Notes under the pieces: model-generated
Databases searched by the model: none
The model's input: the letters and a program-made list of their open reading frames with translations, nothing else
What the model was told of the DNA's origin: nothing
Assembly (NCBI RefSeq): GCF_003334785.1
Contig: NZ_QOWV01000003.1
DNA length: 64,000 nt
Direction: 5' to 3' (one strand)
From: Escherichia coli
Lineage (GTDB): Bacteria; Pseudomonadota; Gammaproteobacteria; Enterobacterales; Enterobacteriaceae
Shown here: positions 32,216 to 32,497 of the stretch, piece after piece
How the letters are laid out: each line of letters opens with the position of its first letter
Position numbering within the stretch: position 1 is the first letter of the stretch
Program-made: the position numbers and the translations under genes

Positions 32216-32497
32216 GGATGGCTCTCTTTCCTGGAATATCAGAATTATGGCAGGAGTGAGGGAGGATGACTGCGAGTGGGAGCACGGTTTTCACCCTCTT
32301 CCCAGAGGGGCGAGGGGACTCTCCGAGTATCATGAGGCCGAAAACTCTGCTTTTCAGGTAATTTATTCCCATAAACTCAGATTTACTGCTGCTTCACGCA
32401 GGATCTGAGTTTATGGGAATGCTCAACCTGGAAGCCGGAGGTTTTCTGCAGATTCGCCTGCCATGATGAAGTTATTCAAGCAAGCCAGGAGATCTGC
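32216..32497. promoter_or_regulatory. Divergent melR / melAB control region (MelR and CRP sites expected); contains a boxC-like GC-rich repeat at 32281..32310
   Basis: Intergenic between divergent melR and melA; tcaccctcttcccagaggggcgagggg matches the 5005..5110 repeat family. Confidence 0.6.

Follow-up and report, generated by a model that had tools for sequence, protein, structure and literature searches.

The intergenic region between melR and melA in Escherichia coli raises the question of whether a GC-rich palindromic repeat was inserted between the regulator sites of this divergent control region, and, if so, whether it contributes anything there beyond length. We addressed this question in a 64,000-nt stretch of E. 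coli DNA (contig NZ_QOWV01000003.1; hereafter, the window), in which the two genes are separated by 282 bp that are base-for-base identical to positions 4341629–4341910 of E. coli K-12 MG1655. The initial annotation of this DNA had singled out the string tcaccctcttcccagaggggcgaggggactc, which maps to 32291–32321 within this spacer, as a copy of the same repeat that occurs, in reverse complement, at 5071–5108, and had suggested that it could alter the spacing or bending of the DNA between regulator sites.

The relationship between the two sequences is genuine but incomplete. Positions 5069–5095 and, on the minus strand, 32293–32319 form inverted arms of 27 nt with 96% complementarity (26/27 bases; pair I18 of the repeat finder), and a degenerate 25-nt pattern of the motif matched the window twice, at the 5069–5095 motif and at the mel site, with two or more matches found in 0 of 100 shuffled sequences. 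The claim of reverse complementarity holds for the first 27 nt of the 5071–5108 motif only; when the two copies are compared in register, the final part of the motif, TTAGGGTGAGGGG, which is its second G-rich block, has no counterpart at mel. Accordingly, the description of the mel string as the same repeat is correct in that both copies belong to one dispersed family, but not in full, given that one of the three blocks of the motif is absent.

The family can be named from the partner copy. The 36-nt core of that copy, CCCTCGCCCCTCTGGGGAGAGGGTTAGGGTGAGGGG at 5072–5107, is identical in sequence and coordinates to TMECO no. 22 of the 23 TMECO elements of MG1655 (4,314,285–4,314,320, type 'A mm'), which is located in the convergent spacer between yjdP and phnP, and our mapping agrees with the published listing (PMC4666352). 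The elements are tabulated by Holder et al. 2015 (PMC4666352; Table 1, Table S2), who equate the TMECO motif with the BoxC palindromic repeat of the 1990s and with the PIT (potential intrastrand triplex) element of Maher and co-workers, and define it as a 9-nt C-rich block and a G-rich GGGNGAGGG separated by a loop of 3–6 nt, with another GGGNGAGGG following after a 3-nt loop. In vitro, the single strand forms a stable intrastrand triplex, and the elements have been associated with higher local variability between strains of E. coli; the authors saw no tie to the function of adjacent genes and no general regulatory role, already noted degenerate copies, and reported the full three-block motif to be absent from Salmonella in their survey (PMC4666352). 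In earlier work, PIT elements displayed neither promoter nor terminator activity. The original K-12 GenBank record lists 33 BoxC features of 51–59 bp and another survey counted 22 copies; using a 53-nt query around the full copy, we detected family matches in all complete E. coli genomes searched (5426/5426), the median being 19 places per genome and the highest number 34.

The architecture of the mel copy becomes apparent in register with nine full K-12 copies and their flanks (Table). Beyond the 36-nt core, the type A copies of K-12 share the arrangement cGGTC-CCCTCGCCC-CTCTG-GGGAGAGGG-TTA-GGGTGAGGG-GAA(A/C), the conserved ends of which, cGGTC on the 5' side and GAA(A/C) on the 3' side, are a feature derived in this analysis from the nine K-12 copies rather than from any published definition. 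The mel copy has aGTC and GAAAAC at these ends. Its C-rich block satisfies the 9-nt family definition CCCTC[G/T]CCC (PMC4666352), and its CTCTG loop is identical to that of TMECO copies 9, 16, 19 and 22, whereas its G-rich block, GGAAGAGGG, departs from the family GGGNGAGGG by a second stem mismatch beside the G-A mismatch of the 'A mm' copies, where the family allows at most one. The sequence GAGGG is followed by a T and then directly by GAAAAC, and the second loop (N3) and second GGGNGAGGG, which provide the third strand of the triplex, are absent; relative to the nine full copies, the mel copy lacks 11 nt comprising the second G-rich block together with the remainder of the second loop, and is two-thirds the length of a BoxC element. 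Judged by its sequence, the mel copy is an internally shortened, degenerate two-block derivative that fails the TMECO motif definition, and it is predicted to be unable to form the three-strand fold of the family because the second G-rich block, that is, the third strand, is missing. As single-stranded DNA, it has a folding energy of −7.4 to −7.8 kcal/mol (z about −1.4) compared with −13.7 kcal/mol (z −2.2) for the full copy, in both cases under a tool that models duplex pairing only.

The shortened form is not confined to mel. Just upstream of the full BoxC copy no. 22, and in the same orientation, lies another BoxC-like copy (5007–5038) with the same architecture as the mel copy, the hairpin of which is predicted at −9.1 kcal/mol (z −2.5). 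It ends in GAGGG-A-GAAAAC much as the mel copy does, which hints that two-block forms of BoxC may recur.

Two other readings of the boundaries of the mel copy were considered and rejected. Truncation of the copy by the adjacent CRP site is inconsistent with the presence of the family tail, GAAAAC, immediately after the first G-rich block. An additional 4 nt shared with the flank of TMECO copy 19 (GAAAACCGTG) probably match by chance, the likelihood of such a match being approximately 10% given some 25 copies, and this likeness was also discounted because CGTG forms part of the conserved CRP2 half-site.

The mel copy is not among the 23 catalogued TMECO copies of MG1655. RefSeq feature tables carry no repeat annotation, even for the canonical BoxC copy, and are therefore uninformative as to whether it is one of the 33 GenBank BoxC features; the literature searched, a scope outside which older lists in subscription journals fall, contained no link of BoxC to the mel region. 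An Rfam scan of 32100–32600 at permissive E-values gave no match on the element. The only Rfam matches were sub-threshold, microRNA-like and located on the MelR-site palindrome at 32328–32454; we consider them spurious, given that a 42-nt mirror repeat of MelR sites is present there. A consensus scan for promoters and terminators found no promoter-like or terminator-like signal on the element.

To place the element relative to the regulatory sites, we used the published layout of the region, in which the −10 hexamer of the melR promoter is CATAAT, CRP2 is positioned 41 bp upstream of where melR transcription starts, MelR site R overlaps that start, MelR site 2 is centred at −174.5 from it, CRP1 lies between the MelR site pairs 1'/1 and 2/2', and 237 bp separate the melAB start from the melR start upstream of it (Samarasinghe et al. 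2008, PMC2377442). The centre of CRP2 was taken as −41.5 and the melR start was placed 7 nt downstream of the −10 hexamer. The resulting coordinates (Table) are validated to approximately 1 bp because, with the melR start at 32237, position −174.5 falls exactly on an arm of inverted repeat I13. The CRP2 core, GCGA-N6-GCAC, is conserved across genera. The MelR sites themselves form an inverted repeat of 42 nt with 76% complementarity (32341–32382 and 32403–32444), in which sites 1' and 1 mirror sites 2 and 2' around CRP1.

Table. Features of the mel control region and of the related BoxC copies in the window (coordinates are those of the window).
Feature	Position	Strand	Sequence or basis of placement
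Two-block BoxC-like copy upstream of TMECO no. 22	5007–5038	+	GC-CCCTCACCC-CAATG-GGGAGAGGG-A-GAAAAC
Partner motif, full three-block BoxC with ends	5068–5112	+	GGTC-CCCTCGCCC-CTCTG-GGGAGAGGG-TTA-GGGTGAGGG-G...
melR open reading frame	31307–32215	−	
melR–melA intergenic region	32216–32497		282 bp
MelR site R, overlapping the melR start	32227–32244		Inferred from PMC2377442; block TTTCCTGAATTATCAGAAT kept across genera
melR −10 hexamer	32244–32249	−	CATAAT (PMC2377442); implies leftward melR start near 32237
CRP2, 22 bp, −41.5 of the melR promoter	32268–32289		From CATAAT and the stated CRP position (PMC2377442)
Two-block BoxC/PIT/TMECO remnant	32287–32319	−	GTC-CCCTCGCCC-CTCTG-GGAAGAGGG-T-GAAAAC; register comparison with nine full K-12 copies and flanks, motif definition of PMC4666352
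Remnant, 3' tail	32292–32287	−	GAAAAC
Remnant, single T	32293	−	T
Remnant, first G-rich block	32302–32294	−	GGAAGAGGG, 8/9, one G>A
Remnant, loop	32307–32303	−	CTCTG, 5/5
Remnant, C-rich block	32316–32308	−	CCCTCGCCC, 9/9
Remnant, 5' end	32319–32317	−	GTC (preceding base a)
Remaining non-repeat spacer, remnant to site 1'	32320–32344		Right part alignable with other genera
MelR site 1' (−120.5 of the melAB start)	32345–32362		Published centres and mirror symmetry of inverted repeat I13
MelR site 1 (−100.5)	32365–32382		attcccataaactcagat; published centres, I13; conserved across genera
CRP1 (−81.5 of the melAB start), between sites 1 and 2	32382–32403		Midpoint of the site 1/site 2 inverted repeat; PMC2377442
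MelR site 2 (−62.5 of melAB, −174.5 of the melR start)	32403–32420		atctgagtttatgggaat; published position on I13 arm
MelR site 2' (−42.5)	32423–32440		Published centres and 237-bp start-to-start distance
melAB transcript start	~32474	+	Published centres and 237-bp distance
melA open reading frame	32498–33853	+	

The remnant falls between CRP2 and MelR site 1', in keeping with the initial placement between the melR and melA starts and among the MelR and CRP sites, and fills 33 of the approximately 55 free bp there. Counted from the melR start, it extends from −50 to −82, and counted from the melAB start, from −155 to −187; being upstream of both starts, it is part of neither transcript. Mapping of the 18-bp MelR sites, a check put forward together with the initial description, places the remnant outside every one of them, and its sole overlap with any mapped site (32227–32244, 32268–32289, 32345–32440) is that of its A-rich tail with three flank bases of CRP2. 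With no MelR site overlapped, we found no sign of the changed regulation through altered spacing or bending that had been envisaged.

The distribution of the element was examined across genera using 80 loci fetched by MelR, one genome per species, with melA adjacent in 61 (64 when three earlier E. coli loci are included). Among these, 77 non-Escherichia loci carried melR, approximately 60 of them with melA divergently adjacent; the Escherichia sample comprised E. coli, E. whittamii and Escherichia sp. E1V33, and did not include E. albertii, E. fergusonii or E. marmotae. The remnant was present in every Escherichia allele examined, and a pattern search of the 77 non-Escherichia loci (approximately 5.9 kb each) found no BoxC-like hairpin. 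In an alignment of 23 representatives, site R with the −10 element, the CRP2 core, MelR sites 1', 1, 2 and 2', and the melAB core promoter were conserved across genera, whereas the stretch corresponding to the remnant was unalignable outside Escherichia, with a gap at this place in the other genera.

The spacing differed as well. From an anchor at site R/−10 to site 1, the distance was 137 bp in all eight Escherichia sequences (seven loci and the window, spanning several E. coli alleles, E. whittamii and E1V33), 124–126 bp in Salmonella, Citrobacter, Kluyvera, Cedecea, Dryocola, Pantoea and Buttiauxella, 113–115 bp in three Serratia-labelled genomes and Pantoea stewartii, 105 bp in Kluyvera ascorbata, Enterobacter sp. 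Ag1, Enterobacter sp. Cy-643 and Buttiauxella agrestis, and 92–93 bp in Klebsiella and Raoultella. The distance from the anchor to CRP2 was constant, at 42 bp, wherever the CRP2 core was recognized in the place expected for it, which includes all Escherichia, Salmonella and most Citrobacter loci, so that in these loci the length difference lies wholly between CRP2 and site 1. Most of the approximately 60 non-Escherichia melR–melA loci are 12 bp shorter at the place of the remnant. Because E. coli TCTCCGAGTATCATGAGGCCGAA, just past the remnant, aligns with Salmonella GTCTGACTATCAGGCCGAA, the 33-bp remnant replaces unrelated spacer sequence of approximately 21 bp, which makes the region 12 bp longer. 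This pattern is the signature of a lineage-specific acquisition accompanied by a loss, in an order that we infer. Aligning mel regions from relatives had been proposed as the way to recognize an insertion, and it did reveal an element restricted to Escherichia, with 137 bp there against 124–126 bp in most other genera; an element present and identical in all relatives at conserved spacing, which the initial annotation would have taken as ancestral promoter sequence, is not what was found.

The same survey yielded several observations that stand apart from the BoxC remnant. In Kluyvera sichuanensis (L085:1241–2491), the melR–melA spacer contains an insertion of approximately 958 bp with two adjacent small ORFs in a toxin-antitoxin-like layout, encoding 88 aa (within ORF 1567–1926) and 112 aa (1948–2286), neither of which matches NCBIfam or Pfam; the first matches the phage antitoxin family phrog_2268 (E 2.7e-5). 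In Raoultella terrigena (L080:1128–2491), an insertion of approximately 1.1 kb splits the mel control region, separating site 1/CRP1 from site 2; the insertion is bordered by an approximately 57-bp duplication that covers the site 1'–site 1 block, and its ORFs encode a 229-aa protein with a match to phrog_26461 (unknown function, E 5e-30) and one of 61 aa. Citrobacter amalonaticus S646 (L045) carries an insertion of approximately 249 bp between MelR sites 1' and 1 (intergenic positions ~156–404 in the orientation of the window), which is absent from another C. amalonaticus genome (L083). In two E. coli loci with a divergent mel allele (L001:301–324 and L002:301–324), the RefSeq melR is 24 nt longer (933 versus 909 nt), and this longer start, located inside the K-12 site R/melR leader, looks like a matter of the start-codon call. 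In E. coli AQ15 (L004, NZ_CP043487.1 4467187–4470316), the match to the mel spacer ends at position 130, within a stretch of many short pseudogene fragments of unrelated loci (proP, pmrB, cadC, melR) that looks mosaic or misassembled. Elsewhere in the window, the yjdN–yjdM spacer (16592–16967) contains a tandem 100-bp REP-containing (BIME-like) unit in 3.8 copies, compared with 5.8 in MG1655; these fewer units make the window 200 bp shorter than MG1655 and show it to be distinct from that genome, the mel region remaining identical.

Within Escherichia, the length of the region is fixed while its sequence varies. The 282-bp region was found in 5399 of the 5426 complete E. coli genomes, in approximately 1000 of them as an allele only 80–90% identical, and ten Escherichia alleles, picked to span identity classes and including two other Escherichia species rather than drawn as a random sample, aligned without gaps over 282 columns. 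Across these ten alleles, the mean pairwise difference was highest in the rest of the spacer (32320–32344; 0.28), followed by the CRP1 zone (0.25) and the BoxC remnant (0.20), compared with 0.04–0.11 for the four upstream MelR sites (1', 1, 2 and 2'), 0.07 for CRP2 and 0.06 for the two core promoters; the diversity of the remnant and the adjoining spacer is thus three to five times that of the MelR sites at an unchanged length. Over the 78-bp stretch reaching from CRP2 to site 1', identity to the window was 99% or more in only 1354 genomes and 90–95% in 2636, and among the matches listed, all full-length ones (24/24) measured exactly 78 bp.

The remnant also preserves some of its history. The G>A in the first G-rich block is common to the K-12-type E. 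coli alleles, E. whittamii and Escherichia sp. E1V33, and because three Escherichia lineages share it, the two-block state is old. A query in which the third block was restored did not rank any complete E. coli genome as carrying that block at mel; its best match, at 91% identity, was to the form that occurs naturally, which is 11 bp shorter. The perfect 6-bp hairpin CCCTCT/AGAGGG is kept in K-12 and Escherichia sp. E1V33, and nearly so in E. whittamii, a survival for which either weak constraint or no more than recent common ancestry could account. In the divergent allele of approximately 1000 genomes, about a fifth of E. coli, the hairpin has decayed (−4.7 kcal/mol, z −0.4).

Taken together with published work on the mel promoters, these data make it probable that the element is a degenerate two-block BoxC derivative that arrived in the ancestor of Escherichia, has been decaying since, and contributes length only. 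MelR autorepression depends on helical phase, as established with engineered 5- and 10-bp changes; the DNA between the MelR sites is open to DNase I, with no MelR protection reported there; and repression was fully restored with a 10-bp deletion and at least partially with pBR322 insertions of 41 or 91 bp. Under this scenario, a BoxC copy would have entered the spacer between the CRP site of melR and MelR site 1' in the Escherichia ancestor and displaced older spacer sequence of approximately 21 bp, lengthening the region by a net 12 bp, or about one helical turn. Its second G-rich block would have been lost or would never have been there, and the copy would since have decayed by point substitutions. 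Transcribed from neither mel promoter and lying under no MelR site, the remnant would in all likelihood contribute length alone, and the distance from site R to sites 1', 1 and 2 would have to hold the helical phase required for MelR to repress its own gene. It is this need for helical phase that would freeze the length while the sequence drifts, and the published phase and insertion data, combined with drift at fixed length, make filler DNA the simplest reading. The concern about altered spacing is accordingly weakened: the net change amounts to about one turn, with phasing kept, and the remnant drifts at about the rate of the neighboring non-repeat spacer. Two numbers fit this account less neatly, in that a 12-bp gain corresponds to 1.1 turns, not exactly one, and the diversity of the remnant is slightly below that of the adjacent spacer (0.20 versus 0.28), which counts against pure neutrality. 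Family membership, architecture, position among the sites, restriction to Escherichia, the 12-bp difference, the fixed length and the high sequence diversity are observed, whereas the history of insertion plus deletion and the neutrality of the sequence are inferred from these patterns.

Among the other explanations, a sequence-specific role, in which a stiff or bent GC-rich segment would shape the MelR repression complex, tune how the RNA polymerase alpha C-terminal domain docks just upstream of CRP2 or provide a site for another protein, appears unlikely. It would draw on the location of the remnant, which abuts CRP2 and covers the part of the class II melR promoter (−50 to −82) in which upstream contacts are made, on published atomic force microscopy suggesting that the DNA between MelR sites is compacted rather than looped out, and on the retention of the K-12-type hairpin in two other Escherichia species. 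Yet the remnant varies three to five times more than the real sites, similarly to the flanking spacer, approximately 1000 E. coli genomes manage with a largely decayed hairpin, and other genera regulate mel without the element; the full restoration of repression by the 10-bp deletion and its at least partial restoration by the 41- and 91-bp foreign insertions, along with the lack of reported MelR protection at the remnant, point the same way. Still less probable, in our judgement, is a contribution of non-B DNA, that is, extrusion of a hairpin, cruciform or triplex-like structure under negative supercoiling arising between the divergent promoters, which would tune transcription or create a mutation hotspot. 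Although the full TMECO makes a stable triplex in vitro and is associated with local variability (PMC4666352), and no part of the region varies more than the mel spacer, the third block required for the triplex is absent at mel and the residual hairpin is weak next to that of the full copy. Furthermore, the non-repeat spacer and the CRP1 zone are equally variable, so that relaxed constraint explains the diversity, and only substitutions, without rearrangements or indels, distinguish the ten alleles and the 78-bp matches listed.

We place almost no weight on the remaining alternative, that this is ancestral promoter sequence resembling BoxC by chance or convergence. The invariant 282-bp length in E. 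coli and the presence of the element in essentially all strains would fit such an origin, but the family match of 26/27 includes the variable loop CTCT and both ends and had no equal in the shuffled sequences, and the element is absent from all non-Escherichia mel regions examined, most of which are 12 bp shorter. A further proposal extends the preferred reading of the remnant as length-constrained filler: the spacer from CRP2 to site 1' might be a length-quantized module across the Enterobacteriaceae, in which the BoxC copy would owe its survival solely to the one turn that it added in combination with a deletion. The spacer classes of 93, 105, 114, 125 and 137 bp are separated by steps of approximately 11 bp (Rayleigh R 0.89–0.92, P ~0.01–0.02, in a post hoc test on five values only, with periods of 10–11.5 bp scanned), a quantization that is only suggestive, though it agrees with the published phase dependence of MelR autorepression and counts in favor of the filler reading itself. 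The in vivo helical repeat reportedly obtained from loop experiments at the ara region, near 11 bp, would fit the mel classes. We consider this proposal unlikely; if it were true, these genomes would offer a natural experiment on the in vivo helical repeat and on the constraint that phase places on the MelR repression complex, and the GC-rich remnant might, in addition, give Escherichia a different autoregulatory set-point.

The mel element is, then, nothing out of the ordinary, a degenerate and uncatalogued copy of a known repeat that probably serves as spacer of constrained length, and given that the repeat family, its degenerate forms and the control region of mel had all been described previously, it is of little import for biology at large. 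Nevertheless, a classic K-12 model promoter region turns out to hold an Escherichia-specific, repeat-derived segment, and because the segment is specific to Escherichia, the spacing and sequence of the mel region should not be extrapolated to Salmonella, Citrobacter or Klebsiella. The spacer lengths across genera also provide independent natural support for the helical-phase dependence of MelR autorepression seen with the engineered 5- and 10-bp changes.

Compared with known systems, the mel copy resembles the BoxC/PIT/TMECO elements in its C-rich block, CTCTG loop, G-rich block (at 8/9 bases), (G)GTC and GAAAA ends and intergenic location, and it occupies one of the intergenic places of a family dispersed in approximately 20–30 copies per genome. 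It differs from the family in the loss of the second loop and second G-rich block, in one further G>A and in being uncatalogued, as well as in its setting between divergent promoters, where it lies upstream of each of the two starts. REP/BIME elements are likewise short, GC-rich, imperfect palindromes dispersed in the intergenic regions of enterobacteria, but their sequence is unrelated: several REP copies occur in the window, and the REP families found there with the consensus GCCGGATGCGGCG...CTTATCCGGCCTAC (D2, I1–I17) have no member at 32216–32497. REPs are typically transcribed and located at the 3' ends of operons, whereas the mel copy lies upstream of both starts. The closest functional parallels are the phase-dependent operator spacers of AraC-family regulators, such as the O2–I1 loop of araC and the spacers from MelR site R to sites 2, 1 and 1', in which the DNA between operators is unbound, sequence change is tolerated, and changes of length are tolerated by whole turns and felt at half turns; at mel, this phase property belongs to the spacer as a whole, a part of which the repeat merely fills in Escherichia.
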